From a virus, in the IMG/VR virus record IMGVR_UViG_3300027573_000001, positions 1 through 63,982 of that record: a stretch of 63,982 bases of DNA, one strand, 5' to 3'. The notes under the pieces are model-generated. The model was not told the origin of the DNA. It did no database searches and saw only the letters and a list, made by a program, of their open reading frames with translations. Made by a program: the position numbers and the translations under genes. This document shows positions 1,977-57,176 of the stretch, piece after piece (the stretch's first letter is position 1; each line of letters starts with the position of its first letter).

Positions 1977-2143
1977 TTATTACGACTAAGAATGGTAAAC
2001 CTTACATGAGTAGCTGTCACAAGGTTATGCCGTTAAAGCGTATAGATACTAATAGCCTGAAAGAACGTGCTCAGCGATTGGCTGAGAAGCATAAGAAATC
2101 ACTTAAAATTTTAGAAGAAAGTGATAAAAGAGTAAATGGTACT
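1973..2143 (+). CDS. Hypothetical 56-aa protein (below ORF-track cutoff)
   Basis: ATGA overlap with the upstream stop; manual translation MIITTKNGKPYMSSCHKVMPLKR...; ends within the polymerase start. Confidence 0.3.
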
Positions 2144-4613
2144 AGCTGAGGCACAAACACACGTATACGGATCACAATGCCACTCGAATGGTATTCGAGG
2201 ATATGGTAATGCTAATGCAGAAATTATGTTCCTCGGAATCGCGCCAGGGCGTGATGAAGTACGTAAAGGTACGCCGTTTACTGGTCCTAGTGGGCAGTTA
2301 CTTAATAGTGTTCTGCATAGTGTTGGTCTTGAAAGAGATAGTGTCTATTGCACCAACCTTATCTGCTACTGGAAAAATGATCCGACGCCGTCTGAACAAG
2401 CGCCGTGCAGAGAACGCCTCAAAGCAGAGATTAAAGGCATTGGGCCTAAAGTCATATATCTTCTTGGAGCCATAGCTACTGAGGCTTTTGTAGGTCGAGT
2501 GCTTGCAGGTAAGAATGGTGCGCGTGGTGCAGTTATATGGAGTGAAGAATACCAAGCATATCTGATTCCTACATATCACCCGTCTGGTATTCTTCAAGGA
2601 TTAAATGACAGACATGGTAAGGATAGTAGAGGCGGAGAGTTTATCTATGACTTATATCGTGACTTAAAGAAGTGGAATTATGTACGTGAGTGGGGTTCAG
2701 GAATTACAAGTGATCCTACTCCTGGAGGCGGATCGCCATTAGCACAAATAACGTATGAGGTATTAAATGCTGAGGGTAGCAATGATAGTATCTCAGCTAA
2801 AATTAATGCTTTTCTGGATTTACTACCAAGAAATAGTCCAGTCGCCTTTGATGTGGAAACTTATAATCCTTCCCCTGATACTATTGACGTGTGGGGTGAT
2901 ACTCTACTGTGTTTTAGTATATCTACTAGTGAGAGAGCATGGGTCTTTCCGCTTGAACTAATTGAGCGAATGAAAGAACCAGAAGTAGCTAGTCAAATTC
3001 ACTGGCCTAACGATATTCAGTGGACATTCCACAATGCACAATTCGATACACAGATTATAAAGAAGAATCTTGATATATGGCTTACAGTTCATGAAGACAC
3101 TATGCTTATGTCATATAGTCTTGATGAGCGTGGTGGTGTGCATGGATTAAAGACATTAGCACGTGAGTATCTAGGTGCAGGATGGTGGGAGCAAGTACGA
3201 GAAAAGGGTAAGAAGCGGCTTAGTGAAATACCACGAGAACTATTGTACGAGTACAATGCTAAGGATGCGTGCTATACGGCTCGACTTGCAGAGTACTTTA
3301 AGCCACTACAAGAGGCTGACAACGTTCGACAAGTATATGAGAACATACTTATACCAGCCGTTAATGCTGTAAAAGAAGTTCAGTATCGAGGCTTTAAAAT
3401 TAGTCGTAAGAAGCACATGCAGTTTGCTATTGAATGGGGTAAGCTGTATTTAGAACTAGAAGAAAAGCTACAACAAATGGCTCGGGACAATGGATGGGAA
3501 GGTGAACTAAATTTACAGTCTCCGATACAGATTAGCAAGTTTCTATATACATATCTTAGCTTACCTATTAAGAAGATGGGCAAGACTGTAGCATCAACTG
3601 ACATGGAAACGCTAAAGGAATTAGCTGGACTACATGAATTTGTTGACGAGTTTATTCGATATAGACATGTAGCTAGGTATTATGATACTTACATTACAGG
3701 GTTCGGTAAACGTATTAAGGAAGACAGTCGAGTACACGCATACGTTAAAATTCACGGTGCTCGTACAGGACGATGGAGTTATGGCGACCCTCCACTACAA
3801 ACCATCCCCCAAACCTACGAAAAAGAAGGAGTAGAAGAAGACTTCCAGCAAACTAGAGAAATGTTCATACCGTCTACTAAAGATCATGTGATCCTTGAAG
3901 TAGACTATGGTAAGGGGGAGATTTGGTGTGGGCAGGCTCTTAGCGGTGATCCTGTCATGCTTGAAGACCTTATGAGTGGAGATTATCACAGTAAGGTAGC
4001 ATCAGATACTCAGGGAATACCATTACAGGAAGTAAACAAAGAACATAGATTCAAGGCTAAGAAAACAACATTTGGAGTTATGTATGCGATCGAAGCCAAC
4101 AGTCTTAGCAAGCAGATTAAAGTCTCTAAGCTCGAAGCTCAAATATACATTGACCGATTCTATCGGCGTTACCCTACTTATACTAAATACGTCGAGTGGG
4201 TCAAGAAGCAAGTCTTACAGTTGGGGGAACTGGTTTCTAAAACAGGAAGAAAGCGAAGATTCTTCATACTGGACAGTGGTGTACGCGCCCTCAAACAAGC
4301 CGTTAACTATCCAATTCAGTCGGCTCTTGGTGACTTCACAGTACTATCGTATATATACTTACACAATGAGTTTAAGGCTAGGAGTCTGGACGCGCACGTT
4401 CTCGTACAAGTACACGACAGCCTTGTTTTCGAGGTCCACAAATCCTGCTTGGACGAAGTTACTACATTAGTTCATGATGTTATGACAAAGAAGTGGTTTT
4501 CTAATTTTCCACGCTTGCCAGTAGAAATGAGCATGGGGCCAAATTGGGGTAAGACTAAAGGTTTCCATGACTGTGTGTTGAAAGGATGTGTAAATGAGTG
4601 GGCGAGTACCTGA
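2136..4613 (+). CDS. Fusion of family-4 UDG-like domain, 3'-5' exonuclease and family A DNA polymerase
   Basis: N-terminus GIAPGRDEVRKGTPFTGPSG and YHPSGIL (UDG family 4 motifs). Exo region FDVETY / NAQFDTQ. Pol A motifs VDYGKGEIW, RFKAKKTTFGVMY, QVHDSLVFE. Confidence 0.9.
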   Translation: MVLAEAQTHVYGSQCHSNGIRGYGNANAEIMFLGIAPGRDEVRKGTPFTGPSGQLLNSVLHSVGLERDSVYCTNLICYWKNDPTPSEQAPCRERLKAEIKGIGPKVIYLLGAIATEAFVGRVLAGKNGARGAVIWSEEYQAYLIPTYHPSGILQGLNDRHGKDSRGGEFIYDLYRDLKKWNYVREWGSGITSDPTPGGGSPLAQITYEVLNAEGSNDSISAKINAFLDLLPRNSPVAFDVETYNPSPDTIDVWGDTLLCFSISTSERAWVFPLELIERMKEPEVASQIHWPNDIQWTFHNAQFDTQIIKKNLDIWLTVHEDTMLMSYSLDERGGVHGLKTLAREYLGAGWWEQVREKGKKRLSEIPRELLYEYNAKDACYTARLAEYFKPLQEADNVRQVYENILIPAVNAVKEVQYRGFKISRKKHMQFAIEWGKLYLELEEKLQQMARDNGWEGELNLQSPIQISKFLYTYLSLPIKKMGKTVASTDMETLKELAGLHEFVDEFIRYRHVARYYDTYITGFGKRIKEDSRVHAYVKIHGARTGRWSYGDPPLQTIPQTYEKEGVEEDFQQTREMFIPSTKDHVILEVDYGKGEIWCGQALSGDPVMLEDLMSGDYHSKVASDTQGIPLQEVNKEHRFKAKKTTFGVMYAIEANSLSKQIKVSKLEAQIYIDRFYRRYPTYTKYVEWVKKQVLQLGELVSKTGRKRRFFILDSGVRALKQAVNYPIQSALGDFTVLSYIYLHNEFKARSLDAHVLVQVHDSLVFEVHKSCLDEVTTLVHDVMTKKWFSNFPRLPVEMSMGPNWGKTKGFHDCVLKGCVNEWAST

Positions 4614-5480: not shown

Positions 5481-5921
5481 ATGCCTGGATTTATTTACGA
5501 AAAGGAGGCTACTAGTTTGGGGGCAATACATAAGTTTATAAACATGCCTGAAAAACGTGAGTGTGGAGGGTGTGGACAAGAATTAAGTCATCCCGATCAT
5601 ATACAACCACAAACGTATCGCAAGCCAATCAAGGGAAGGTTTGACCTAATCCCGCCTGTGGCTTTACGTGCATTATCTAAAATATACGAAGAGGGTGCGA
5701 ATGTATATGGAGAGAGTCAGTACATTAGCTCGCCGATGCCTCATAGCGTAGTAATTAATCACTTAATTAATCACTTGACTCTGGCTCAAAGTGGAGATAA
5801 ATCAGAAGATCATTGGGCTAAGATAGCATGGGCTGCTTTCACAATGATAGTGTATGAAAGTATGGATTTAGGAGAAGCTGACTTAACAAGGTACGGAGTA
5901 GTACCTAAGAAGAACGACTAA
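5481..5921 (+). CDS. DUF5664-like protein (dATP/dGTP diphosphohydrolase-like N-terminal domain), putative
   Basis: RFDLIPPVALRALSKIYEEGANVYGESQY resembles the family signature as recalled; SD AAGGGGG upstream. Confidence 0.45.
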   Translation: MPGFIYEKEATSLGAIHKFINMPEKRECGGCGQELSHPDHIQPQTYRKPIKGRFDLIPPVALRALSKIYEEGANVYGESQYISSPMPHSVVINHLINHLTLAQSGDKSEDHWAKIAWAAFTMIVYESMDLGEADLTRYGVVPKKND

Positions 5922-18728: not shown

Positions 18729-19343
18729 CTACGGCAACATGGGCTCGATGTCTCGAATCTTAGCAATACGAGCAGGAGTTACAGTTGTATCAGGTAACAA
18801 CTGCACTTCCAATGGAATCATTGCCTTGTTATCAGCAGTAAAGTCAAGTGTAGGACTACCCATAACCTGACCCTTCCAGCCGATAACTCTAACAGCTTCA
18901 TCATCACCGTTATGCTGAATGTCGAAGCCTAAGCTAATGTAGTTTTCAGCAATAGTAGAATTCAAGTCCCAATCACTATGGCCGCGAGTACCTACACCAG
19001 CGGCCACCGTAGTAATAGCTCCCTGACCAGTAGCATCAAGGATATTTGTCGGGCTAAACTCAGCTAAGTTTGTGCTCATACGCACATCACGTCCAGTAGC
19101 AGGACGCAGGACAGGGTCAAGCTCTTGATCTACTCTAATCTCTGCCCTATCTACGCTTGACGTGAAGTGCAGACCACCATCAACATAACCCGACTCTACC
19201 CACGGAGCAGGCATAGTACCAACAGTTCCCCATGTGGTACCATACAGAACAGTGTCAGCGGGGATAGCGTTATCGTTATCCCAATCTACAACGTATACCT
19301 TGTAGTCTCGACTAGCGAGTACCTTAGCTTGATTGAACGCCAT
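18729..19343 (-). CDS. Major tail protein (putative)
   Basis: Synteny: upstream of the chaperones and tape measure gene. Confidence 0.6.
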   Translation of the reverse strand: MAFNQAKVLASRDYKVYVVDWDNDNAIPADTVLYGTTWGTVGTMPAPWVESGYVDGGLHFTSSVDRAEIRVDQELDPVLRPATGRDVRMSTNLAEFSPTNILDATGQGAITTVAAGVGTRGHSDWDLNSTIAENYISLGFDIQHNGDDEAVRVIGWKGQVMGSPTLDFTADNKAMIPLEVQLLPDTTVTPARIAKIRDIEPMLP

Positions 19344-19369
19344 GTTTTACCCCTTAATTTAGTTGCGCG

Positions 19370-19624
19370 TTAGCGGCTAATAGTACCCGCACCCTCACCT
19401 ACACTTACAGCTTTTGTCTCAACTACAGACCCTTTACTAGCTGCCTTAGCTGCTTCTGCTTCACTACTCTTTAAAGCAGAAACAGGAGTAAAACGATGGC
19501 CTTGCTCAGTGTACCTATCAACTAACGCCTGTGCAAAATTACCAGTAGCCCCACGCCTTACCCCTTCATCATCCTCAGTCTTCTTGAAAAGGTGAGACGG
19601 ACCGTCATACCGAAACTCAGGCAT
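19370..19624 (-). CDS. Hypothetical protein
   Basis: ORF track; tight packing. Confidence 0.5.
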   Translation of the reverse strand: MPEFRYDGPSHLFKKTEDDEGVRRGATGNFAQALVDRYTEQGHRFTPVSALKSSEAEAAKAASKGSVVETKAVSVGEGAGTISR

Positions 19625-19626
19625 TA

Positions 19627-20223
19627 CTATGTCTCCAATCCTGGAAGAACTAACGCAGGCTTACGACCGTGAGCATTAATATTCCATACTAATGCAGCAG
19701 CCTTCTGTTTAGTTATTGGTTCTAATAATCCTAACGATACAGTACCAGCATCAAAGTCTGTTTCCTCAGTACCAAGCTTCTTAGCTGTCTCTGGATGACC
19801 AGTGGCAAAATCTGGTAGGGACTTTGCTAATACACCTTGTATAGCTTGGTAACGCTCTAACTCTACCTCCGTTAAGAAATTCTCTGCACCGTACCTACCA
19901 GCATGATACCAGTAGGCGTGCAAACCTTGCATCACGCCGTTAAAAGGTAATTCTATGCACATATCAGTAAAGTACATATGCTTACCTTTACAGCGTCTAC
20001 ATCGTAGTACCTCACCTAATGTGCCTTGCCGTATCAGAAAAAACTGACTTTCAAGTAGCTTTTTCTTAGCCGCCTGTTGTTCTGGACTTTCTACCCACCA
20101 CGGAATTTCTACTTCCGCTTCCTTTCCGTTAGGTAGTTGTACAGCAGTATGAACAGTTTTTCTGTCTCTAGCTTTTGATAAGTCATAAGGTACTAATATT
20201 TGTGGCTTTTGTGGGTTAAACAT
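19627..20223 (-). CDS. Hypothetical protein (CRRCKGKH Cys motif) inserted in the tail module
   Basis: ORF track; preceded by a 127-bp gap holding repeat copy D. Confidence 0.5.
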   Translation of the reverse strand: MFNPQKPQILVPYDLSKARDRKTVHTAVQLPNGKEAEVEIPWWVESPEQQAAKKKLLESQFFLIRQGTLGEVLRCRRCKGKHMYFTDMCIELPFNGVMQGLHAYWYHAGRYGAENFLTEVELERYQAIQGVLAKSLPDFATGHPETAKKLGTEETDFDAGTVSLGLLEPITKQKAAALVWNINAHGRKPALVLPGLET

Positions 20224-20240
20224 TAGCTATGCACCGATCC

Positions 20241-20313
20241 TATCTTAAGCTCATTGCACAGGGCTGGGCCTAGCGCCCGAGCGGTTAAATCCCTAACGCC
20301 GCGCTTATATTCA
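20241..20313 (+). repeat. Dispersed motif copy D (core TTGCACAGGG 20254-20263; GCGCTTATATTCAC tail)
   Basis: Read directly; plus orientation inside the minus-strand operon. Confidence 0.8.
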
Positions 20314-20350
20314 CGTTCGCGCCTGAATAGTGAGTACGAAGCCACACACA

Positions 20351-20791
20351 TTAGCTTACTGGTACGCCAGCCCACACAGCTACATATGATACCTGTGTGA
20401 ACGGGAGATTAGTAACATCAGTGTCTATTAGCTCGAATGGTCCTGACTCTAGCTCTACCCAAGCTACTCTACACTGTCCCTGTGTGAATCCGTGTACTTC
20501 GGCGCTACCCTGCCCTGGACATATGACAGGATGTACATTTAACCATAAATCATATGCTTGGTCTGGACTCGCGCCGTAGAATTCTATATCTAAACGTGAG
20601 GAGAACATACCTACTTCATACCACCGCTCTATACCAGGAGAGCCATTGATACGTATTACTATTGCCTTACCTGGAGTAGATGTCCATGACTTCCGTAGCG
20701 CACCAGCGATACGAGTAGTTTGTGCGGTGACTGTAGTTGAGGCTTCCAGTCGCTGTATAAATGCTGCTTTTATATCAGGTAAGCTAGCCAC
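20351..20791 (-). CDS. Tail terminator / tail completion protein (DUF3168-like, putative)
   Basis: N-terminus LPDIKAAFIQRLEASTTVTA resembles the family; synteny. Confidence 0.5.
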   Translation of the reverse strand: MASLPDIKAAFIQRLEASTTVTAQTTRIAGALRKSWTSTPGKAIVIRINGSPGIERWYEVGMFSSRLDIEFYGASPDQAYDLWLNVHPVICPGQGSAEVHGFTQGQCRVAWVELESGPFELIDTDVTNLPFTQVSYVAVWAGVPVS

Positions 20792-21158
20792 GTAATGCCG
20801 CCTGTAAGTACTGTGTTACTTTCGGTGCCCAAATGTCTAATGCTTCCCTAAGCTGTGGGTGATATCGGAATTCATGATATAGAGTATGTGGAGCATCGGA
20901 ACCTACGGCGAGAGTACGCTTGCCTCCTGTTACTATATGTAGTTCGGCGAACGCTTCGTCAGCCATTTGCCCCGTCCACTTGTGTAAGTTAGCATGTAAG
21001 TATTGTTCTATGTCCTGCCGCAAGTTTTCCATAGCTCGATTTATGTCGTCATTTATTGTTTTAAGTACAATACCCCCGCGCCAGGTTAGTTTGTAATTTG
21101 ACGTATTGTAAGCTACCATATTAATGCTATACCTACCACCGCTGTGGGTTTGTACCAC
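20784..21158 (-). CDS. HK97 gp10-like neck protein (putative)
   Basis: Synteny and size; true start may be internal. Confidence 0.45.
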   Translation of the reverse strand: MVQTHSGGRYSINMVAYNTSNYKLTWRGGIVLKTINDDINRAMENLRQDIEQYLHANLHKWTGQMADEAFAELHIVTGGKRTLAVGSDAPHTLYHEFRYHPQLREALDIWAPKVTQYLQAALRG

Positions 21159-37297: not shown

Positions 37298-37783
37298 ATG
37301 GAAGAATATCAAGTGTGGAGACAAGCACAGGGATTAGCACGCGCCACTCCAAAATACCCAAAACGTTCTCGACCATTTTTTGTATCCGATAACGCTTTTG
37401 AGGGGCTACATAGACTTGCCGAGCAATTTGGATTAATGCATGGTACTAAGCCATCAGCTAGTGGATTAGTAGAAGCCATTGGCTTGAATACTATTCTAGT
37501 ATATCAAGAAGAAGAGACAGACTCAGGTTATGGTTCAGCAGCATATGTAGATACTGACGGACTTACAGTATCACAATGCTTTGAATTAGGTAAAGAAGAC
37601 TACATAGAAAAAAGGCCGATGGCTTTTAGCACATCGGCCCTTGCAGGAGGAAGGAAACGGTCTAGAGTCTTTGTAGAAGCCTATGTTAAAGGCTATACTA
37701 CTGGATTCATAGACGACGAAGTTAGCTATGAACCAAACTCATTTGAAGCGTTATTTGAGACTAACACCCCTTCTAATGAGTGA
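37298..37783 (+). CDS. Hypothetical protein with RHH-like N-terminus (paralog of 36739..37296 N-terminus)
   Basis: PFFVSDNAFEGLHRLAEQFG...SGLVEAIGL. Confidence 0.55.
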   Translation: MEEYQVWRQAQGLARATPKYPKRSRPFFVSDNAFEGLHRLAEQFGLMHGTKPSASGLVEAIGLNTILVYQEEETDSGYGSAAYVDTDGLTVSQCFELGKEDYIEKRPMAFSTSALAGGRKRSRVFVEAYVKGYTTGFIDDEVSYEPNSFEALFETNTPSNE

Positions 37784-38095
37784 TTCTGCAATACGCTGCG
37801 CGTCACGCTGTCGCTGCTGTGCCCTATGGTCGTCAAGCAACCTACGCTGAATATCATACCTATCGCGTGCGCGCTGGCGTGCAGCTTCTTTTGCCTCTTC
37901 TGGTGTACTATACTTACGCGGACGGCCTCGACGCTCTACTTGGTTACGCTTTTCTTCTTCCAAGTCATACCCCGTATATTGCGCTAATGCTTCACGAATA
38001 ACGCACGTTAGAGACTTATCCCCTCTTTGTGCAAATTTATCTGCATGATCTCGTTGTTCCTCACTTAGTTTAACGGTGATAATTACTTTTGCCAT
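37751..38095 (-). CDS. Ribbon-helix-helix (CopG-like) protein with basic tail
   Basis: KVIITVKLSEEQRDHADKFAQRGDKSLTCVIREALAQY; its 3' end overlaps 37298..37783 by 33 nt (convergent). Confidence 0.6.
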   Translation of the reverse strand: MAKVIITVKLSEEQRDHADKFAQRGDKSLTCVIREALAQYTGYDLEEEKRNQVERRGRPRKYSTPEEAKEAARQRARDRYDIQRRLLDDHRAQQRQRDAQRIAESLIRRGVSLK

Positions 38096-38239
38096 ACCAC
38101 CCCCACACAGTAAGCATACCACAGAAAAGCGGCAATGTCAATAAAACAGAGATTGCAATTTCGTTACAAAAAGGTATTACTTTTTCTTATATAAGGTATA
38201 ACGATTTGTTATACCTGTTGGACTGAAAGGATATTATTA

Positions 38240-45300: not shown

Positions 45301-45663
45301 GATCGTCACTCCTGGTCGGCATACGTGCCGCACTAACCCACTAGCTTTCACTAGTGGGCTAGGTCAGACGTAGTACCATAGCGTGCCGCTCATAACGGCC
45401 ACGCATAAGAGAGTAAAGAGCTAATGAGACGTATTGCTGACTATGTACGCTACCGTCACTTACCCGATTCATCCCTACGTAACTGCCTACACTGTCACCA
45501 ATTCGAGGCGTTCACTTCCGCCGTACCGATGGCCGCTAGCAGTGTTCCGAGTCTACTGTCGTTCGTTCTGTGAACGTAGGGTGTAAGGCTAGACGCCCGC
45601 GCTGCACGGATGTTTTACGCTCGCCCCCTGGTGGGGCTTGCAACCGTGTCACCAGTTTTATGC

Positions 45664-45775
45664 GTTGAGAGTGGAGATTACTCCGCCGTTCTTACTAGTG
45701 GCGTTTCCGTCCTACCAGACCGTTGTACGCTAACGGACCAACGTGTGTCGGTAGACTACTGTCGCCACTCTCAAC
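45664..45775. other. 112-nt closed multi-hairpin element (candidate structured RNA) in the GC-rich non-coding stretch
   Basis: 11-bp perfect closing pair GTTGAGAGTGG (45664-45674) / CCACTCTCAAC (45765-45775) with internal CCGTT..AACGG and CGCC..GGCG hairpins. Confidence 0.35.
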
Positions 45776-46202
45776 TTGTAAATGTGCCCGCCCGTGCTTC
45801 AAGTCACAGTATGCTCCTTTCCTGGTCGGCCTACAATAGATATGTGCGCCCAAAAGCCTCATAACGAGCGCACTATGTATCCTATAATTCAAGTATGCTC
45901 ATAACCCTACGCTTTGTGCAGTCGAACGGCGAGCTAATGATACAGCGTATCAATAAACACTACATGACAATACTGTCAGGCAAATACACTTTACATCGTG
46001 TCATTTTGGCTATTTAGGGATATCGTTTATCTCAATTAGGGTAGTGTCTCCGCATGGTTTGACACGTATTGTCGCTGTACGGGCCTACAAACGCCATTTT
46101 CAGGGTGTACAATTTGAGCTAAACAAGTTTAGTACACTAGATCGGAGTTTTGAGCTAAAATGTAAAGAAATAACTAATAAAACGTTTTACCTCGAATAAC
46201 TA

Positions 46203-46214
46203 GAACATTTGTTC
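46203..46214. promoter_or_regulatory. GAAC-N4-GTTC box (Gram-positive-type LexA/Cheo-box-like), arms extend to TAGAAC/GTTCTA
   Basis: GAACATTTGTTC read directly. Confidence 0.5.
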
Positions 46215-46232
46215 TACGGCGACCGATAGCTA

Positions 46233-46279
46233 GGGATATTTACTCTACAGTAGTTTTATTCTAAGGGTATTTACTATAC
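46233..46279 (+). repeat. Iteron pair GGGATATTTACTCTAC / GGGTATTTACTATAC
   Basis: Read directly; same motif at 46515, 46561, 50074 and 50114. Confidence 0.8.
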
Positions 46280-46324
46280 GCTAGTTTTATTATTCCTTTA
46301 CATTAGCAAATATGTATCACGGAA

Positions 46325-46375
46325 TCTCGGCTGCGCGAGCTACCCTGTGCAAATCGCAAACTTGCGATATGAGAT
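46325..46375 (-). repeat. Dispersed motif copy G (core CCCTGTGCAA 46343-46352) abutting the palindrome ATCGCAAACTTGCGAT (46353-46368)
   Basis: Read directly. Confidence 0.75.
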
Positions 46376-46514
46376 CGCAATAATGCTAATTTTGAGATAA
46401 AACGTTTTATGCCGAAATTTGAGATAAAACCTTTTTGTAGAACATATGTGCTCCGCGGCAAGTGTAGCAAATTTGCACTCTCATATCTAACTTTTAGACT
46501 AGAACATATGTTTG

Positions 46515-46600
46515 GGGATATTTACTATACGTTAGTTTTATTATTTTACTAAAATGCTGGGGGATATTTACTATACGTTAGTTTTATTATTTTACTAAAA
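46515..46600 (+). repeat. 46-bp tandem duplication carrying iterons GGGATATTTACTATAC (46515-46530, 46561-46576)
   Basis: GGGGATATTTACTATACGTTAGTTTTATTATTTTACTAAAAT occurs twice. Confidence 0.9.
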
Positions 46601-46646
46601 TTGTCGAGTTTGCCGATCTAATAACTAGACAATTCCTCCCGCGGTA

Positions 46647-46658
46647 GAACAAATGTTC
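46647..46658. promoter_or_regulatory. GAAC-N4-GTTC box (LexA-like)
   Basis: GAACAAATGTTC read directly. Imperfect copies at 46440-46451 and 46502-46513. Confidence 0.5.
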
Positions 46659-46814
46659 TGTTAGTATGGGCTAACAAAAAAGGCTAGCACATGCTAAGGC
46701 TTATCCTTAGTACGTACTAACCTTTTTCATTAGCCTATACTTTCATCTCAAATTAGCTTATGCTCATACACGCCGTTAGCGTAGGCTAACCTATTTTTTA
46801 GGGTCCAACTCAAA

Positions 46815-46935
46815 AAAGGTACGATGGGTAAAATTCAGTCGAAATATTTTAAACTAGAAATTCAAAATTTGTAAAACCAAATTGAAATTCAAAATGGGTT
46901 TACAAATTGGAATTATTAACATTTTGGAATTCTGA
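46815..46935 (+). repeat. AT-rich block, paralog of 50688-50800
   Basis: Shared AAAAAGGTACGATGGGTAAA.TTC....GAAATATTTTAAACT.GAAA...AAAATG..TTTACAAATTG.AA. Confidence 0.8.
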
Positions 46936-46942
46936 TTTATAT

Positions 46943-47446
46943 TTATTCTTCCAAGTTTTTGACTGGTTCTAGTTTGCAAACATATCGAATATTGTTTGGT
47001 AAACTTAGAATAAAGGAGTGTGCGAGGTATTCACAATTAATCTTCTTCATTCCTATATCATACGGATCGAATGGTGGACACTCTCCCTTTGCATGAACTA
47101 TACAGGAATCGTAGTTACCATATATACTAACTCCTTCCAATGCTCGGTCATCAAAGCGTTGCCTGCTTTTCCGTACACTATCCATAATGGCACGTACTAG
47201 AGTACCCTGCCGTGGTATGCCACTGTTAGGTACGCCGAATGTACGTTGAGTATCAATATACTCATTTACTGCATTAGTAATCAGGATAGCTTCTTTTTCT
47301 TCTAATACAGTAGTTACTAGTACACCCTCCGCATTAAAGATACCATATTCCTTTTCTTCATGCAGATCATATGTATCTAACTTGTACGTCCAGTGTCGGT
47401 CAACGGCTTGTAACTTCTGACGGTTAGCGTTACTTTTACTTGCCAC
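46943..47446 (-). CDS. Hypothetical protein
   Basis: GTG start with GGAG SD. Confidence 0.55.
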   Translation of the reverse strand: MASKSNANRQKLQAVDRHWTYKLDTYDLHEEKEYGIFNAEGVLVTTVLEEKEAILITNAVNEYIDTQRTFGVPNSGIPRQGTLVRAIMDSVRKSRQRFDDRALEGVSIYGNYDSCIVHAKGECPPFDPYDIGMKKINCEYLAHSFILSLPNNIRYVCKLEPVKNLEE

Positions 47447-47448
47447 TA

Positions 47449-47775
47449 TTACTCTCCGATTCTACACGCTTTGCACAGTAGGTCGCTTGCTATATTCAGT
47501 CGCTTTAGATCGGCATACTCGTCATTCCTTCCACAGTAAGCACAGCCGTTTTCCTTGTCTTGCACTCGCTGTAAGTGCTTACAAATATCAGGGTTAGCAC
47601 TACTCTTCTTTACTGCCCAGGGACAGGTACAGTACCATACACCATTCTTAGCTAATAGCACACTATAGCTACTACCCTTAGCTACATTGTATACTCGGTA
47701 TTCTGTCTCGCTTACCTTGTGCGCCTGTAGCCTTTCAGCTACAGCGCGCACACGGTTTAGCTTACTATCTGCCAT
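47449..47775 (-). CDS. SWIM-type zinc-finger protein
   Basis: YCTCPWAVKKSSANPDICKHL (CxC..CxH). Confidence 0.6.
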   Translation of the reverse strand: MADSKLNRVRAVAERLQAHKVSETEYRVYNVAKGSSYSVLLAKNGVWYCTCPWAVKKSSANPDICKHLQRVQDKENGCAYCGRNDEYADLKRLNIASDLLCKACRIGE

Positions 47776-47953
47776 TCTTCCTTACCTCATTGTAGCATGT
47801 AAAGTGATAATAGTTTGCACTAATCTGCATCATTACAATAGTTTGTACTTCTACTGCATGTGTGCCGACAGGGTTTTGGCAGTAATCACAATATGTACGC
47901 ATGAATTTATGTGGTAGAGCTACACCGCGAGTCTTAGTGTACATTATCTCCAC
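47765..47953 (-). CDS. Hypothetical small Cys/His-containing protein
   Basis: ORF track; overlaps the next gene's start. Confidence 0.45.
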   Translation of the reverse strand: MEIMYTKTRGVALPHKFMRTYCDYCQNPVGTHAVEVQTIVMMQISANYYHFTCYNEVRKNGR

Positions 47954-48037
47954 TCTAGTTTAGTGTAGGGTATTGGTCACTAGGAGTACCGCTGCTTTAT
48001 GTGCTGTATCCTTACGGTATACAGTATCCTACATTGG

Positions 48038-48271
48038 TTAGCTAACTACTTCTAGCTTATTTATCGCGCTATCAATCGCTCGCAATACTACATCATAGCT
48101 ACGCTCGATCTTGGCACGCTTAGTGATATCCTTTTCCTTTTGGCTAGTTAGCTTCTTTTCTGCTCCCTTGATACGCTTTTGATTATCTAGTGCTCCGAGA
48201 ATCGCAAGCCGTTCATACTCCGTTAGCATGTACTGTGTAACGCTTGATTTTATCTTAGTCCTGGTAGCCAC
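48038..48271 (-). CDS. Hypothetical helical protein
   Basis: ORF track. Confidence 0.5.
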   Translation of the reverse strand: MATRTKIKSSVTQYMLTEYERLAILGALDNQKRIKGAEKKLTSQKEKDITKRAKIERSYDVVLRAIDSAINKLEVVS

Positions 48272-48494
48272 TGTATGATACCTCCTGTACTCTTACTGTA
48301 CCATATATGCCGTTTGCTGTCTGTTCCCTAGAGCACACTTGATCGAACTTACGAATATTCTTCCTATGGCCTAGATAAATATATCCGTGGTACCTACCTT
48401 TACACTGACACTGACATACATCGTTAGTAGCATACTGACATCGACCATCGCACAGCGGATATTGTTTGATATACTTAACCTGAGACTGTGCCAC
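48255..48494 (-). CDS. Cys-rich hypothetical protein
   Basis: TAGGAGG SD; CDGRCQY...CQCQCKGRYH. Confidence 0.55.
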   Translation of the reverse strand: MAQSQVKYIKQYPLCDGRCQYATNDVCQCQCKGRYHGYIYLGHRKNIRKFDQVCSREQTANGIYGTVRVQEVSYSGYQD

Positions 48495-48628
48495 CGAATA
48501 ACCTCCTAGTCTCTATACTAGATTTAGTTCGGTAGGCAAGCTAGGCGGTGAACCTAGTACACACTCTCTCTTGCCTTATGGCAGCTAACGTAAACTCTAC
48601 CTTATGCGCGTTAGCCTTTACTGTAGAG

Positions 48629-48856
48629 TTAGCCCATCTTAGTACGTTTCTTAGCATAACTCTCCGCACACTTCCAAGAGCAAAGATGTCTAGGCTGGTT
48701 TGTATCGTGGTACACTACTAGTCCACTAATTAACACTCCTTCCTCATTAAATGTAATGTAGTTACTGCACGGTCGTCTAGTTCGTGCATTATTCTCACAA
48801 AATGTCTGCTTTGTACCGTTAGATCGTGGAAGATACATACTTAGGTTATGCTTCAT
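48629..48856 (-). CDS. Hypothetical protein
   Basis: GAGGA SD. Confidence 0.5.
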   Translation of the reverse strand: MKHNLSMYLPRSNGTKQTFCENNARTRRPCSNYITFNEEGVLISGLVVYHDTNQPRHLCSWKCAESYAKKRTKMG

Positions 48857-49312
48857 TTTATCCTCAGATAAATTAGACGCCTCATGTACCAGTAGCTAGC
48901 ATACTAGTACAATCCATTTACTACATACTCGTCGCGTCCTAGTTTCGCGAGATATATGTGGCGTCCCATTGTTATGTCTTTTGTGCCATGAGTGTATGGT
49001 TTCCCTAAGATATATGTTTATTTGTGTCCAGTAGTAGGCTAACGGTTCTATAAATCGCCCGACTCATCTACTACTGTATAAGCCTTACGGCTAAGGTTTA
49101 CCTAATGCGTTGACACGCATTGTCTATCCTCCTGTTACGGAATACGGTACCCTGCATCGGTCATGAACCGTCGGCATCTTATGCGTGCAGGGTTACTATT
49201 GATAGCTAGTAGCGTTAGCACTGCGTTAGCAGGCTTAATAGCCTTGTGTATGTACTAAGTAGCATAGCTATAGTTAGCAGTGATTAGCTTAGTTAGCCTT
49301 GTGTGTTGATTA

Positions 49313-49350
49313 GTGAGAGTGTAGACTGCCGTTGCTTCCTACACTCTCAC
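49313..49350. other. 12-bp perfect hairpin (GTGAGAGTGTAG..CTACACTCTCAC) about 40 nt past the RHH gene stop
   Basis: Read directly; no clear U-tract, so terminator status is uncertain. Confidence 0.4.
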
Positions 49351-49391
49351 TATAGCACGTTTTACGCGCTGTGTCTGTTCTCTAGGTTACA

Positions 49392-49820
49392 TTACTCGTC
49401 GTCGTCATCCTCATCATCGACCAGGGATGCAAGGTCGATGTTACCCTCATTGTAAGCCTTAAGAAGAGACTTAATCAACTCGTTACGCTTCTTGCTAGCG
49501 GCCTTTTGTGCGGCCTGCCGTTCCTCGTCAGTGGCGTATTTCTTAGCACGCTGACGGATAACATTAGGCAACTCAACATCGAACGTATCTGCAAGCGTCT
49601 CGCGGACGAAACGCGCAAGGGTCATATTCTCGCCACTCTTAGCTGCCTCATCGAGAAGCTTAATCTTCAACTCAACAGGCATCGTCACCATAACACTAAC
49701 GCGCGTTCCTGGTGCCAACTCGGTAAGCGCCGCTCGTTCGTCCTTATCCTTTTCGTCGTCGTCGTTATCGGCGCCGTTTGCGTTCTGTGTCTGTTCGACA
49801 TCCTTAGCACTGGTAGCCAT
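49392..49820 (-). CDS. Ribbon-helix-helix protein with acidic tails
   Basis: VSVMVTMPVELKIKLLDEAAKSGENMTLARFVRETLA. Start set to MATSAKD (AGGA SD) because the ORF-track start overlaps the promoter. Confidence 0.6.
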   Translation of the reverse strand: MATSAKDVEQTQNANGADNDDDEKDKDERAALTELAPGTRVSVMVTMPVELKIKLLDEAAKSGENMTLARFVRETLADTFDVELPNVIRQRAKKYATDEERQAAQKAASKKRNELIKSLLKAYNEGNIDLASLVDDEDDDDE

Positions 49821-49877
49821 CGTTCCTATTCCTTGTGACCGCGCTTCTGTGAGCGCCGCGCCATTCCTTACACTCTT

Positions 49878-49906
49878 AATGTACCACACCCTATAGGCTG
49901 TGTCAA
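49878..49906 (-). promoter_or_regulatory. Sigma70-type promoter TTGACA-17-TACATT
   Basis: Reverse complement of 49878-49906 reads TTGACAcagcctatagggtgtggTACATT. Confidence 0.55.
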
Positions 49907-50073
49907 TAGGTTTTCAGCGGATTTCGGACCAATTTTAGAAACTCGTTTGATCGTAGTATGATCCGTCTGGAACTAGAACAAGTGTTTCACTTGACAAGCC
50001 CATTATGAGTATGGTATTCGCGCGCACGCGCGCAGCTAACTAGAATAGCAGGAGAGTCCGAACGGCGGTTGGA

Positions 50074-50151
50074 GGGATATTTACTGTACAAGAGTCAAAT
50101 ACCTGGCCTACTGGGGATATTTACTATACATGAGTCAAATACCCTCCTACG
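50074..50151 (+). repeat. Iteron pair GGGATATTTACT(G/A)TACA.GAGTCAAATACC, 40-bp period; each unit is an imperfect palindrome
   Basis: Read directly. Confidence 0.8.
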
Positions 50152-50687
50152 CTCTTGTTAGCCTACGCTAACTACTTGCATTAGTACGTGCTTATAGCTT
50201 GCATTAGCATACTCGCATGGGTTGCATTAGCCCGTGTGTTTCTGGTATAGTGTCATTAATGTAGTAGTGCAACGCTTTGATTGAATACATAACAGATATG
50301 CTAATGAATACGTACCGCTATAGTCTTGATAATACATACAAGGATTACAAGTGTAGTACACTCGCATATTGCAAGTGTAGTACGCTTGACGGTGCGTCGC
50401 GATTAGTATTAGCTAACGCTACATACAATAATTACATGCGCTACAGGGTAGTACGCTCTCACTAGCGGAGTGATGGTGTACTGCCTAATTTTATTTGTTC
50501 GGGTGTACTAATGTAGTTAGTTTGTATGAATTAGTATAGTTAGTATGTACTCACTAAAGCACTAAGCATGGGAGGTTAGCATGGGCTAAGGTAATGGGTT
50601 AGCCCATGCTCAGGTCCAGGGTGAGCATAGGCTCATTCGATCGGCGAGGGGATGCTAAGGTGTTTTGAATTCTAAGTACAACGTAAA

Positions 50688-50800
50688 AAGAGTACGATGG
50701 GTAAATTCCAACTGAAATATTTTAAACTGAAAATGTAAAATTGTGAAAATGAAAACAAAAACCAAAATGCATTTACAAATTGAAAATGTTAACAAAACGG
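50688..50800 (+). repeat. AT-rich block, paralog of 46815-46935
   Basis: See 46815-46935. Confidence 0.8.
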
Positions 50801-50804
50801 ATTT

Positions 50805-50850
50805 GCCGCTACGCGCTACAACTACCCTGTGCAACGGCGAACAAATGTTC
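50805..50850 (-). repeat. Dispersed motif copy H (core CCCTGTGCAA 50825-50834; CGCTACGCG 50807-50815) fused to the LexA-like box CGAACAAATGTTCT (50838-50849 core)
   Basis: Read directly. Confidence 0.75.
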
Positions 50851-50875
50851 TTATTCTCCAAAAAATAATACATAC

Positions 50876-50904
50876 TTGTTTTTTTCATATAAGTATGGTA
50901 CTAT
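50876..50904 (+). promoter_or_regulatory. Sigma70-type promoter TTGTTT-17-TACTAT (TGg extension)
   Basis: Read directly; AGGAG SD and ATG 50927 follow. Confidence 0.55.
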
Positions 50905-50926
50905 GATATAGACAGGAGATCGCGAG

Positions 50927-51169
50927 ATGCCCACTGTAAAGATAGTAAAAAACAAATCAATTACAGATATATTAACTGACCAGGATATCTCAGCGTTGGA
51001 AGTAAATGTCCTAGTAGCACTAAAGAAAGGCGGTAGCGAACTACAAGTAATAGACCTGATTGATAGCGTGCGTAAGCACAATGCAATGTCATATAAGTTT
51101 GTAGACGACCGTCGTTTTTATCATGCAATAGCTAGACTAGTTAAGCGTAAGTATCTAACGTATGGGTGA
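50927..51169 (+). CDS. Winged-helix-like DNA-binding protein (putative)
   Basis: LEVNVLVALKKGGSELQVIDLIDSV...YHAIARLVKRKYLTY pattern. Confidence 0.5.
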   Translation: MPTVKIVKNKSITDILTDQDISALEVNVLVALKKGGSELQVIDLIDSVRKHNAMSYKFVDDRRFYHAIARLVKRKYLTYG

Positions 51170-52444: not shown

Positions 52445-53791
52445 ATGGTACTAGCTGCTGAACCATTACAAGAAACTACCAATGAGTTACTTACTTTACG
52501 TGAGTATCAACGTATAGGTCGGGACTTCTTAATAGATAAGAAGCGTGCATTCTTAACTGACTGGCCGGGTTTGGGTAAGACACTACAAGCGGCTGAGGCT
52601 ACTGTAGAATTCCCTGCTATAGTTAGTGCGCCTGCTTACTTAACTGAACAATGGTATAATTTCCTTGTTAAGCAGTATCCTAACAAGCGTGTGATTATGG
52701 CTACTGGTGCTACTATGCATCGTTTTGAGCGCCAGAAGATGTTAAATAAGCGTGCCGATTGGTATGTAGTAAACCACCAAATGTTCCGTGGTTGGTTTAC
52801 TATACCAGAATGTAAGACGGTTATATTTGATGAATGCCATCATCTACGCAATCGAACCGCGTTACAGTCTAAGGGAGCAGCAAAGTACGCGGCTAATATG
52901 GATAGACGGGTTTATATGTTATCAGCAACTCCCATGTGGAAAGATACTGATGACATTTGGATGCAGCTTCATATTGTCCAACCGCAAATCTTTACTTCTT
53001 ACAGAGATTTCGTGGACTATTTCATGCTTGTTGATGAAACAGCCTATGGACCCAAAGTACTTGGATTAAAGCGTCAAACTAAAAAAGAACTAGAAGCTAT
53101 GCTTTCAGTTCTAATGCTAGGTCGTTCATATAAGGATGTAGGACGGCAGTTACCTGATACAATTGAAACAGAAATTATTGTAGACTTTCCTAAACCTATA
53201 CAAGAGAAGTATGACGAACTACGAAAGAAGTACCGAGTACAATTCAATGAGGATGAAACGCTCATACTTTCTAGTTACTTGCAGGTACTGCGGTTACTAC
53301 GCTTGTTCACAAACTTTAAGGATAAACAAGAAGCAGCCCTTTCGCGCATTGAAGATGTTGATAAGCCAACATTGGTATTTACATGGTACATTGATACCGC
53401 AGAAGATATCTCAAAACTGATAGCGCAACGGTTCGGTAAGGATAATGTGTACTGTTTAACAGGTCATATTGATCCACAAGAGCGCCATAAGTTAGCACAC
53501 GAAGCACAAAGGAAAGGTAAGCATATTGTAGCTACTCTAAGCTCGCTTGGTGAAGGAATTAATCTGTATCAATATCGACACGTTCTCTTCTATGAAGAAG
53601 ATTGGCCTCCTGGACGAAACTACCAGGGATTGAGTAGAGTTGTACGTGACCGTAATGATGACGGACACAATACTGAACCTGTATTAGTATCATACGTCCA
53701 TGTCAACCGTAGTGTAGATGTCGCTATTCATAAGTCTAGTAAGAAGCGATCGTCTAACATCAAACAAGTTATGCAGGACATATTACTATAA
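52445..53791 (+). CDS. SNF2-family (SF2) helicase/translocase
   Basis: DWPGLGKTLQA, DECHHLRN, LSATP, GEGINL, QGLSRVVR. Confidence 0.85.
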   Translation: MVLAAEPLQETTNELLTLREYQRIGRDFLIDKKRAFLTDWPGLGKTLQAAEATVEFPAIVSAPAYLTEQWYNFLVKQYPNKRVIMATGATMHRFERQKMLNKRADWYVVNHQMFRGWFTIPECKTVIFDECHHLRNRTALQSKGAAKYAANMDRRVYMLSATPMWKDTDDIWMQLHIVQPQIFTSYRDFVDYFMLVDETAYGPKVLGLKRQTKKELEAMLSVLMLGRSYKDVGRQLPDTIETEIIVDFPKPIQEKYDELRKKYRVQFNEDETLILSSYLQVLRLLRLFTNFKDKQEAALSRIEDVDKPTLVFTWYIDTAEDISKLIAQRFGKDNVYCLTGHIDPQERHKLAHEAQRKGKHIVATLSSLGEGINLYQYRHVLFYEEDWPPGRNYQGLSRVVRDRNDDGHNTEPVLVSYVHVNRSVDVAIHKSSKKRSSNIKQVMQDILL

Positions 53792-53795
53792 AGGA

Positions 53796-54767
53796 ATGAG
53801 TATGAGAGATTTGTCAGGCTATCAAGCTAAGATTGTCTGTGATACTACAAATGGTGTAGGTACTCGTGTAACTACATTTGAGCTACAAATGCCTAAGTGG
53901 CTTGTAGCCGAATTGAATACGCATCGTAGTGCGCCCGAGGTTACTCGTCATCTTGCCCGTAATAGTGCTAGTAGCAGAGCAGTACCTACATCACGTATCA
54001 TTGCTGCTGTTACAACCAACCCTGTATACCCTACAGGATGGGAACTACAAGAAGATTTTATAGACGGACTGATTAATAATCCTGTTGTACCTACTGATTG
54101 GCGTGAGAACACAGGAGGTATGCAACAGGATACTATTCTTAGTGACTCAACTATAGCTACGCTTGACTACCTCTGGTTGCGTGCTAGAGATAGTATGATA
54201 AACTACGCTAGGCGTATGCTTGAACTAAAGGCTGATAAGCAGCGTGTGAATCGAATGCTTGAACCGTGGATGTGGACTAAAGTAGTAATTACTAGTACGG
54301 AGTGGGATGCATTCTTTGAACTAAGGAATCATCCCGCTGCACAACCTGAGTTTGGACACATTGCTCACTTAATGCATACAGAGTATAGTTCAAATGAGCC
54401 TAAATTAGCATACTGGCACATGCCATATTTACTTAATGATGATGATTTACAAGATGAGCATATAAACTACTTAAGAGGACTAAAGTTAGCAGGACACGAG
54501 CTTGTTAATCTTAACACTCCAGTCTTTGCTTATTTGCTTATTAGTGCTGCTAGGTGTGGGAGGGTTACATACTATCGTCAAGGAGAGACTAAAGACTTAC
54601 TAGATGATATACAGCGTGGACTCAGCTTTGCTAATAATAAGCATTGGTCACCTTTAGAGCACTGTGGTAGATTAATGAACGATAACAAGTGGTACGGGCC
54701 ATTCTTCGAGTTTAAATCACTACGTAAATATTTCCTTAATGAGTCTGGAAAAGGACGCCGACGGTGA
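53796..54767 (+). CDS. thyX: ThyX-like flavin-dependent thymidylate synthase (divergent motif)
   Basis: ELNTHRS..TRHLARNSASSRAV in place of RHRxxSxxxxSxR; WDAFFELRNHPAAQPEFGHIAHLM. Start moved to the ATG after the AAAGGA SD. Confidence 0.7.
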   Translation: MSMRDLSGYQAKIVCDTTNGVGTRVTTFELQMPKWLVAELNTHRSAPEVTRHLARNSASSRAVPTSRIIAAVTTNPVYPTGWELQEDFIDGLINNPVVPTDWRENTGGMQQDTILSDSTIATLDYLWLRARDSMINYARRMLELKADKQRVNRMLEPWMWTKVVITSTEWDAFFELRNHPAAQPEFGHIAHLMHTEYSSNEPKLAYWHMPYLLNDDDLQDEHINYLRGLKLAGHELVNLNTPVFAYLLISAARCGRVTYYRQGETKDLLDDIQRGLSFANNKHWSPLEHCGRLMNDNKWYGPFFEFKSLRKYFLNESGKGRRR

Positions 54768-55542: not shown

Positions 55543-56589
55543 ATGATTACATCTATTAGCGACATTCAGACGTATTTACGCTGTCGCAGACAGTGGGATT
55601 ACCAGTCTTCAAATAGGCGCAACCTTACTCGCGGCGGTATGAAAGCACCTGAGTTAGAACTAGGCACACTTATCCACGCTGCGTTAGCTGATTGGACACT
55701 TAGACCAGACATTGATCCCGTAAAGCTATTCATGCAGCATAGCGCAAAGCGTCTAAACGAAATTCAGAAGCAGTATCTAGAACTAGTAGGTACAAGTATT
55801 AGTGACGATGAACTATCATCATTCTATGCCTCAATAGATCTAGGCAAGGATATGATAGCTAACTACAAAGAACACTGGAAGACTCCACTACCTAATAACT
55901 TTGAATATGCATTCCCTGAACAAGAGGTTATAGTAGATATTCCTGGCACTGAACATAGATGTAAGTCATGCTTTGATTCAGCATATAAGAATGAAAGCAT
56001 AACAGTTATTTACTCAAATGATGCAGAAATTAAATTCTCTGCTAATAGTGATTGTCCTAAGTGTCATGGTACTGGTGTAGAAAAGCATCAAATCCGTGCT
56101 ATTCTTGATGGCTTGCTAAAGAGTAAGCGTGGTACGTATGTTGTGCTAGAGCGTAAGACATTTGATCCACGCTATGCCCCTACTGAGGAAAGTTTACAGA
56201 CTAACTTTCAGTTTGTAGGGTATACATGGATCGTGCGTGAGTTAGGTATGACACCTGTAGCTGGTGTAGCCTATGATGGACTACGTAAGCAAAAGGCACC
56301 AGGAAAGACAGGTAAAGCAACACGATTGGAAGACTTGTTTATCCGTACAATGGTGCAGTTTACAACTGAGCAACTTGATTTATGGGCAGTAGACCTAGCG
56401 GCTATTGTTAATGAAATGGCTAACAATCCTGTGATTTATCCTCATAGGCCGTGGGATGGATGTCGTCGTTGTTCATTCGATAGCCTGTGCCAGTCACAAT
56501 CACGCGGCGAAGACTTTGAGCACTTGATTCAACTTAACTACGTACAGCGGCCAAACACACGCCCTATTCTTACGGTGGTAAATAACTAA
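55543..56589 (+). CDS. PD-(D/E)XK nuclease, Cas4/RecB-like with C-terminal Cys cluster
   Basis: ISDIQTYLRCRRQW at the N-terminus; ILDGLL..VVLERKT; CRRCSFDSLC at the C-terminus. Confidence 0.7.
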   Translation: MITSISDIQTYLRCRRQWDYQSSNRRNLTRGGMKAPELELGTLIHAALADWTLRPDIDPVKLFMQHSAKRLNEIQKQYLELVGTSISDDELSSFYASIDLGKDMIANYKEHWKTPLPNNFEYAFPEQEVIVDIPGTEHRCKSCFDSAYKNESITVIYSNDAEIKFSANSDCPKCHGTGVEKHQIRAILDGLLKSKRGTYVVLERKTFDPRYAPTEESLQTNFQFVGYTWIVRELGMTPVAGVAYDGLRKQKAPGKTGKATRLEDLFIRTMVQFTTEQLDLWAVDLAAIVNEMANNPVIYPHRPWDGCRRCSFDSLCQSQSRGEDFEHLIQLNYVQRPNTRPILTVVNN

Positions 56590-57176
56590 TGCCTGTTCTG
56601 AGTGATTTTGATTTACTACAACTTGGTGGAAGATTAACTGAACCTTTCATACCTACTAATGTACAGCCTAATAGTATTGATGTGCATTTAGGACAATCGG
56701 TTAAGTACTCAAACATCCCTGTCGATTATGTGTATGATATGCGAAAGGCACATCTTGACGGGATTGATTACACAGAACATGATCTAACTAAAAGTGACTT
56801 AATAATTCCATCAAGACGATTTTGTTTAGGGGTAACTCTAGAAACTATTAAAGTACCACAAGTTTATTATAATTATGCTGGAATCTTCTCTCTTACTGCG
56901 AAGATTGAAGGTAGGTCAGGAGTAGGTAGGACAGGTCTTTGTGTTGTCAATGCAGGTAGAGTAGACACAGGATGGGAAGGTAAGCTAACATTAGAACTAT
57001 ACAACTCGGAGCAGTTTCCTATTGTGTTATTCTATGGTATGCCGATCGCACAAGTAGTATATGAGACTACAGTATCTCCAGTAGGCATACCCTATGGTGC
57101 ACCAGCATTGCACAGTAAGTATCAAGGTGATACTAAAGCTGAACCATCAAAGATGTGGAAGAATTATGCTGATTGA
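56589..57176 (+). CDS. dcd: dCTP deaminase / dUTPase-superfamily protein
   Basis: NSIDVHLG; GRSGVGRTGL..NAGRVDTGWEGKLTLELYN; MPIAQVVY. Confidence 0.8.
   Translation: MPVLSDFDLLQLGGRLTEPFIPTNVQPNSIDVHLGQSVKYSNIPVDYVYDMRKAHLDGIDYTEHDLTKSDLIIPSRRFCLGVTLETIKVPQVYYNYAGIFSLTAKIEGRSGVGRTGLCVVNAGRVDTGWEGKLTLELYNSEQFPIVLFYGMPIAQVVYETTVSPVGIPYGAPALHSKYQGDTKAEPSKMWKNYAD

Follow-up and report, generated by a model that had tools for sequence, protein, structure and literature searches.

It is well known that phages can carry LexA boxes in their regulatory DNA. Coliphage 186 with tum, phages of the Gifsy and Fels-2 types with their LexA-repressed antirepressor or inducer genes, and CTXphi in the control of rstA use host LexA as a damage sensor for a phage promoter. 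In Gram-positive bacteria the LexA operator is the Cheo or SOS box CGAACRNRYGTTYC of B. subtilis LexA (DinR), in which GTTT and GTGC variants are tolerated and of which several may be clustered in one control region. In GIL01, a tectivirus of Bacillus thuringiensis, dinBox1 and dinBox1b lie at promoter P1 and dinBox2 and dinBox3 at P3, with gp7 as co-repressor and the LexA homologue gp6 as activator (PMC4551915, PMC6182141).

We analysed six LexA-type palindromes in a tailed phage of an uncultured farmland-soil lineage. The window, that is the whole stretch of DNA studied, represents a complete virus record. It measures 63,982 bp, has a direct terminal repeat of 127 bp and contains about 41% G+C. 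Its head and packaging genes encode an HK97-type head, a portal and a terminase. A 1745-aa tail or internal protein contains M23 and SLT domains, and among the lysis genes a 129-aa amidase precedes a holin-like gene. Replication genes comprise a family-A DNA polymerase carrying a fused UDG-like domain, a RepB-like primase, SNF2 and UvrD helicases and a PD-(D/E)XK nuclease; AAA_24, DUF669, ThyX, dCTP deaminase and a dATP/dGTP diphosphohydrolase-like protein complete the replication and nucleotide genes, and three tRNAs are present. No integrase, S24 peptidase, CI-type HTH or repressor, or partition gene was detected when the ~83 ORFs were scanned with Pfam and PHROG; this is not proof of a lytic life style, many small ORFs having no assigned family.

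Like GIL01, the phage has neither a CI-type repressor nor an integrase and carries several LexA-type boxes in regulatory DNA. In contrast to GIL01, a 15-kb tectivirus, it is a 64-kb tailed phage, and it has no gp1, gp6 or gp7 homologue (tblastn of the three proteins against the window gave E > 1 only). Its boxes lie upstream of predicted promoters, whereas dinBox1 of GIL01 lies downstream of the start site; none of the six is downstream of a predicted start. The sequence-only reading had likened the phage to GIL01 and its lysogeny switch; a switch of this style is not supported, on these grounds and because no temperate signs were seen. GIL01 is the closest functional analogy, and membership in its class fails on the defining accessory proteins. 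Phages 186, Gifsy, Fels-2 and CTXphi differ from this one in having an immunity repressor and chromosomal integration, genes for which were not found here among the ~83 ORFs. The setting is unusual: LexA-type boxes occur without lysogeny genes, in duplicated, iteron-rich control regions.

Six LexA-type boxes in two paralogous control regions

Two regions of the window, NCR1 (45352-46942) and NCR2 (~49822-50926), contain no credible ORF. They are paralogous and repeat-rich, a leftward small-gene module (46943-49820) sits between them, and rightward early genes begin at 50927. An exact-pattern count showed that the perfect motif GAAC-N4-GTTC (GAACNNNNGTTC) occurs exactly three times in the genome, against an expected count of 0.52; three copies were reached in 2 of 100 shuffled sequences. 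The three perfect boxes reported by the sequence-only reading were thus recovered, two of them at the positions given (46203 and 46647) and the third one nucleotide further on, at 50839-50850 instead of 50838-50849.

Box 1 (46203-46214) is the centre of a 16-mer (46201-46216, TAGAACATTTGTTCTA) that is a perfect 16-bp palindrome. Box 2 (46440-46451, TAGAACATATGTGCTC) has one mismatch (GTGC), and box 3 (46502-46513, TAGAACATATGTTTGG) is a GTTT variant that directly adjoins the iteron GGGATATTTACTATAC. Box 4 (46647-46658, TAGAACAAATGTTCTG) is perfect. Box 5 (49976-49987, TAGAACAAGTGTTTCA) is centred at about -45 with respect to a predicted promoter, P5, and box 6 (50839-50850, GCGAACAAATGTTCTT), again perfect, at about -66 with respect to another, P_R. 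Boxes 1 and 4 make up a 20-nt inverted repeat bracketing 418 bp, and sites 1, 3 and 5 have additional left-flank bases in common, ACTAGAACA. On the minus strand box 6 adjoins a copy of a dispersed TTGCACAGGG cassette, in which it fills the slot held by an AT-rich element in the other copies.

The core of the Cheo box as given in the literature, GAACRNRYGTTY, was fixed as a pattern beforehand. It was found five times against 0.23 expected, a count reached in 0 of 100 shuffles, and all five matches are within NCR1 or NCR2. Five of the six boxes fit this core and the sixth has GTGC. The match to the LexA/Cheo-box consensus claimed earlier therefore holds, inner positions included, and the comparison with shuffled sequence that had been suggested as a check gave a clear enrichment. 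The generic one-mismatch class of GAAC-N4-GTTC, by comparison, is not enriched (21 found, 17.3 expected). The three imperfect sites that had been put forward stand out from it in that each has TAGAACA plus TGT; all three carry the extended word TAGAACAWNTGT, as the perfect boxes do. TAGAACA occurs seven times in the genome, five of them at box sites.

All six boxes fall within the non-coding DNA of these regions, which makes up 2.7 kb of the 64 kb, and their confinement to the two control regions was correctly noted before. With a palindromic weight matrix no other site in the genome scored above 11.4 bits, against 16.0-22.8 bits for the boxes, in agreement with the earlier remark that none was seen elsewhere; the matrix was trained on the same six sites, so these values show merely that no other site is comparable.

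The phage boxes share with the Gram-positive LexA operator the GAAC-N4-GTTC core, the inner A and T, the GTTT and GTGC variants and the clustering within a control region. They differ from it in their flank, which is mostly TA (TAGAAC) and not C, and in that most of them do not overlap a predicted core promoter.

Other repeats are found in the same regions. Iteron-like repeats (GGGATATTTACTRTAC plus a tail) lie beside the boxes at 46233, 46265, 46515, 46561, 50074 and 50114, and iteron pairs are flanked by boxes in both paralogous regions. A 119-nt AT-rich repeat is present in two copies (46803-46921 and 50676-50794). Each copy has a good predicted leftward promoter of sigma-70 type at the same position (46846-46875 and 50719-50747, minus strand). 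It is therefore probable that non-coding transcripts run leftward across the two control regions and through their TTAGC-type hairpins. Immediately downstream of box 4 there is a near-perfect 81-nt hairpin (46662-46742). No Rfam family was found, the sole match of this hairpin being a plant miRNA precursor far below threshold and spurious. An RNA-level role of the boxes was rejected, as there was no Rfam family and the palindrome is too short for a stable hairpin.

Retention and turnover of the boxes in related phages

Relatives were found by protein look-ups among soil and farmland contigs. They are L001 (80-aa protein 93% identical), L002 and L009 (68%), L004 and L005 (SNF2 helicase 59% identical) and L007 (SNF2 55%). 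Four relatives were informative, two of them very close to the window. No close DNA relative was found among the cultured phages of a phage collection, exact-pattern scans of viral contigs gave no match, and one metagenome scan re-found L001 only.

The boxes are kept in three related soil phages while the adjacent repeats differ. L001 keeps boxes 2, 3, 4, 5 and 6 and lacks box 1, which falls inside an indel. In this phage box 2 is perfect (GAACATATGTTC), box 3 is identical to that of the window, and box 4 is a conserved island whose left flank has completely diverged. Box 6 is identical in L001 and in L002/L009. Box 5 of L002/L009 reads GAACAACCGTTC, with the spacer changed from AAGT to AACC and the right half from GTTT to GTTC. 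In L004/L005 the same divergent region contains a single perfect box, CGAACATTTGTTCTG, which lies 26 nt upstream of the P5 -35 element; the equivalent of box 4 in L004 has decayed by a 1-nt deletion, and that of box 6 has decayed to CGATAAATGTTTAA. Among these relatives the half-sites are held and the spacer varies, as in box 5 of L002/L009, box 2 of L001 and the perfect box of L004.

GAAC boxes are absent from L007 and from relatives with 58% or 33% G+C, and in the 58%-GC relative L010 no LexA-type motif of another phylum was recognised. The decay of boxes 4 and 6 in L004 and the loss of all boxes in L007 indicate that most sites are dispensable. As judged from these alignments, the boxes behave as real but individually dispensable binding sites. 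At the position of box 5, L007 has a different perfect palindrome, TCCAGTTCTGGA (395-410), 7 nt upstream of the -35 element of P5, which may represent an operator swap.

The iterons are found at 2740-2830 in L002, 7140-7270 in L004 and 450-620 in L007, and their sequence is particular to each genome: GGGATATTTACTRTAC in the window, GGATATACACTGTATAC in L002, the GATATACGATA type in L004 and CGTATACACTCCATACGAG in L007. Such drift is expected where sites and a phage initiator or regulator evolve together. The palindrome AAAACGTTTT is retained even in the 58%-GC relative. We take this contrast to mean that the iterons and AAAACGTTTT track phage proteins, and the GAAC boxes something outside the phage, as would be expected of sites for a host protein. 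A second palindrome, (GAGA)TAAAACGTTTTA, recurs in NCR1 (46177-46190, 46397-46410 and 46415-46435) and is also present in L004 (1480-1500 and 1745-1760) and L010 (7150-7166). It is retained more widely than the GAAC boxes and probably serves as operator for a conserved protein encoded by the phage.

Predicted promoters and candidate binding proteins

A number of intergenic sites match the pattern TTGACA-N17/18-TAnnnT and have a TRTG or TG extension; all promoters named here are predicted. P5 (49991-50020, plus strand) consists of a -35 hexamer TTGACA (49991-49996), an 18-nt spacer and TATGg-TATTCG (50010-50020), and would be read rightward through a GC hairpin leader (GCGCGC-NN-GCGCGC) and the iterons. 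Its -35 hexamer and the TGGTA are invariant in the window, L001, L002, L004 and L007, and the spacer between them varies, a pattern that on sequence comparison is a classical promoter footprint. P_R, the putative promoter of the rightward early operon (50876-50904, plus strand), has TTGTTT at 50876-50881, a 17-nt spacer, TACTAT at 50899-50904 and TATGg, and is conserved in L001 and L002. P_L2, assigned to the leftward small-gene operon (49878-49906, minus strand), has TTGACA, a 17-nt spacer, TACATT and a TG extension, and is conserved in all relatives. P_L2, P5 and P_R flank NCR2. No convincing promoter could be assigned to boxes 1-4 in the 46-kb region.

The leader of P5 starts with the GCGCGC-NN-GCGCGC palindrome (50020-50036), which has equivalents in L001, L002 and L004. 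The arms are invariant, and the two central bases are AC or GT depending on the relative.

Box 5 is the only box that abuts a predicted core promoter element. It ends 3 nt upstream of the -35 element of P5 in the window, L001 and L002, and a box is located upstream of this element in every box-bearing relative. In B. subtilis, too, LexA boxes are found upstream of a -35 element, recA being an example, and the position of box 5 therefore does not disqualify it. In the window box 6 lies just past an A-rich tract, its end 25 nt upstream of the -35 element of P_R. Both box 6 and the box of L004 lie ~25 nt upstream of a predicted -35 element (centres ~-66 to -70). This placement suits an activator or a blocker of an upstream element better than a classical LexA repressor.

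Neither LexA (TIGR00498) nor the LexA DNA-binding domain (PF01726) was detected in the six reading frames of the phage, even at E <= 10. Three small proteins of DNA-binding type are encoded. The first gene of the leftward operon (49392-49820, minus strand) encodes, as read from its translation, a 142-aa ribbon-helix-helix protein. Its CopG-like paralogue (37751-38122) matches a PHROG family of CopG-like repressors. The two proteins have the C-terminal motif R.KY(A/S)T.EE...AA in common, and each gene heads a leftward unit behind a predicted TTGACA/TRTGnTA promoter. The first gene of the rightward operon (50927-51169, plus strand) encodes the 80-aa protein, a winged-helix-like candidate DNA binder without a sequence match in Pfam, PHROG or PDB. 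Its AlphaFold model has a mean pLDDT of 79, and the top Foldseek matches were winged-helix domains (Fur, PerR and others), all with E > 1 and LexA not among them. The 80-aa protein was rejected as a LexA-like domain, as there was no sequence match and the fold match was neither significant nor specific to LexA. The description of the phage as having no repressor of its own agrees with the scans as far as CI-type proteins are concerned, but is too strong in view of the two ribbon-helix-helix proteins and the winged-helix-like protein.

The consensus match, the enrichment, the confinement to two regions, the conservation and the lack of a LexA-like DNA-binding domain in the phage make host LexA the leading candidate binder. 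We propose that a dimeric repressor with LexA specificity (Cheo box, GAAC-N4-GTTC), most likely the LexA of the host, would occupy the six palindromes. As operators for host LexA they would chiefly gate the conserved predicted promoter P5, a reading whose chances of being right or wrong seem to us evenly balanced. P5 is the best-anchored target, a putative sigma-70-type promoter that would be read through the GC hairpin leader and the iterons to early and replication genes. We infer that P5, and perhaps P_R and promoters of the paralogous 46-kb region as well, would be damped when LexA is bound. On DNA damage, RecA would stimulate LexA self-cleavage and the brake would be lifted, and in this way the phage probably senses DNA damage of its host.

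The spacing of box 6 and of the L004 box, the failure to assign a promoter to boxes 1-4 and the decay or loss of boxes in L004 and L007 count against this reading. The palindrome could, moreover, belong to any one of the three small DNA-binding-type proteins that are encoded at the divergent promoters. In addition, modified bases, if present, could alter protein recognition of the boxes. The gene set of PolA with an N-terminal UDG-like domain (SPO1-type), ThyX-like protein, dCTP deaminase and dATP/dGTP diphosphohydrolase-like domain (2136-4613, 5481-5921, 53718-54767 and 56589-57176) suggests non-canonical bases in the phage DNA. The remote relative L010 has QueD, QueE and FolE-type genes of the 7-deazaguanine pathway (18893-20984).

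The binder of the palindromes could instead be a dimeric regulator encoded by the phage, which would repress or activate the divergent early promoters much as a CI/Cro-type switch or GIL01 gp6 does; we regard this as possible but doubtful. The regulator might be the ribbon-helix-helix protein (49392-49820), its paralogue, the winged-helix-like protein or a zinc-finger-like small protein. DNA-binding-type genes head both divergent operons flanking boxes 5 and 6, and the ribbon-helix-helix protein is well conserved in the box-keeping L004 (59-65% identical, beta-strand kept). With centres at ~-45 and ~-66, the boxes are placed like the sites of class II and class I activators; gp6 of GIL01 binds at -43.5 (PMC6182141). 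However, such a regulator would require an operator that agrees by chance with an 18-bit host consensus, inner positions included, and the phage has neither a recognisable LexA DNA-binding domain nor a gp6 homologue. The winged-helix homologue is 39% identical in L007, which has no box, and 33% identical in L004, which has one, so that box presence does not track winged-helix similarity. The promoter of the ribbon-helix-helix gene itself bears a different inverted repeat over its -35 element, CCTAT-N11-ATAGG, and between relatives the half-sites are constant but the iterons, in which co-evolution with phage proteins is expected, are not. The box distribution, the separate repeat and the coincidence of consensus that would be required are the reasons why we hold a phage binder to be doubtful and host LexA to have an about equal chance of being right or wrong.

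A different role at the DNA level, as architectural or host-factor sites next to the iterons of an origin-like or recombination region or as the ends of duplicated segments, would agree with the flanking of iteron pairs in both paralogous regions, the contact of box 3 with an iteron, the inverted repeat formed by boxes 1 and 4 and the position of box 6 in the AT-rich-element slot of the TTGCACAGGG cassette. We consider it improbable, as we know of no origin or recombinase site with the box sequence, and the box retained in every box-bearing relative is the one tied to a promoter. Boxes 1 and 4 are no mobile-element pair, since L001 lacks box 1 yet keeps the enclosed segment; a MITE reading of the two boxes was rejected for this reason. 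That the boxes are chance matches or products of local duplication without function seems very improbable. The two regions are paralogous and repeat-rich, sites 1, 3 and 5 share their left flank, and one-mismatch matches are at chance level. Against this, no shuffle reached the count of the pattern fixed a priori, and in L002 and L004 the half-sites were kept although spacer and flanks had changed. L004 has a perfect box in its equivalent 1.2-kb non-coding region, where we estimate ~0.02-0.03 to be expected (8 fixed bases).

Host LexA, our preferred binder, could be fitted into a wider scheme, which we think unlikely as a whole. Host LexA would be the sole damage sensor of a tailed soil phage that has no integrase, CI or partition genes, and would gate transcription through two duplicated, iteron-bearing, origin-like regions. 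The result would be an SOS-gated switch of replication or early expression, possibly with a LexA-dependent carrier state, similar to GIL01 in function but built independently in an unrelated 64-kb phage, possibly one with a Chloroflexota host. If host LexA does bind, an apparently virulent phage would read the DNA-damage state of its host at early and origin-like control regions, and LexA-dependent phage regulation would extend beyond the classical temperate phages. P5 and P_R form a small, defined set of promoters on which this can be tested.

Host lineage and the flavour of the boxes

The boxes narrow the host of the phage lineage to Bacillota, Chloroflexota or Actinomycetota, groups with a LexA that recognises GAAC-N4-GTTC. 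About 40 genomes per phylum were sampled from Bacillota, Chloroflexota and Cyanobacteriota and the sequence upstream of lexA was read, for Chloroflexota also that upstream of recA. The sampled Bacillota operators were mostly CGAAC-N4-GTT(C/T)G, some being AGAAC...GTTCT, with 2-4 boxes upstream of lexA about 30 nt apart. The GTTT right half, as in box 3, was the commonest form in these operators, and GAACAAGTGTTT and ACGAACAAATGTTCTT, which are near-identical to boxes 5 and 6, were found upstream of Bacillota lexA genes. In Chloroflexota most operators were TAGAAC-N4-GTTCTA (lexA) or TAGAAC-N4-GTGCTA (recA), which the TA flanks of the phage boxes and the GTGC variant of box 2 match. The TA flank was present in 42 of 76 Chloroflexota half-sites and in 8 of 134 from Bacillota. 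The sampled Cyanobacteriota had mostly TAGTAC-N4-GTTCTA.

A weight-matrix classifier assigned 34 of 38 Chloroflexota and 62 of 67 Bacillota training sites correctly in leave-one-out tests. Applied to the six phage boxes it gave a summed log-likelihood ratio of 0.8 bits, boxes 1, 2 and 4 leaning to Chloroflexota and boxes 3 and 6 to Bacillota. Box flavour thus does not separate Bacillota from Chloroflexota as the host phylum. The sites were said to give a host clue, which they do for lineages with a GAAC-N4-GTTC LexA; between these two phyla the clue is weaker than hoped.

Other features of the genome point in several directions. The TRTG-type extended -10 elements, the frequent GGAG-type ribosome sites and the SPO1/CP-51-like polymerase lean to Bacillota, as does the single cultured-phage match of the amidase, an Exiguobacterium phage. 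No CodY boxes, a Firmicute clue, were found. Amidase homologues were detected in 16 of 301 Chloroflexota genomes (best 65 bits) and in 5 of 301 Bacillota genomes (best 41 bits). The best genomic match of TerL was 54% identical in the Bacillota sample, where it sits in an otherwise unrelated prophage of a 69%-GC genome, and 47% in Chloroflexota; the nearest TerL proteins of cultured phages (44-46%) belong to Brevundimonas, Desulfofustis and Microcystis phages. SNF2 homologues in cellular and prophage genomes were 21-34% identical and came from many phyla. On these sequence comparisons, Bacillota and Chloroflexota are the host candidates.

The SOS box of the ~40 Chloroflexota genomes, as read in the regions upstream of lexA and recA (loci L127-L156 and L187-L216), is a 16-bp element, TAGAAC-N4-GT(T/G)CTA, of which the GTGC right half is typical of recA. 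This form is useful for predictors of SOS regulons and prophage induction. Several Chloroflexota genomes of lower G+C content have TGGTAC-N4-GTTCT, which is cyanobacteria-like.
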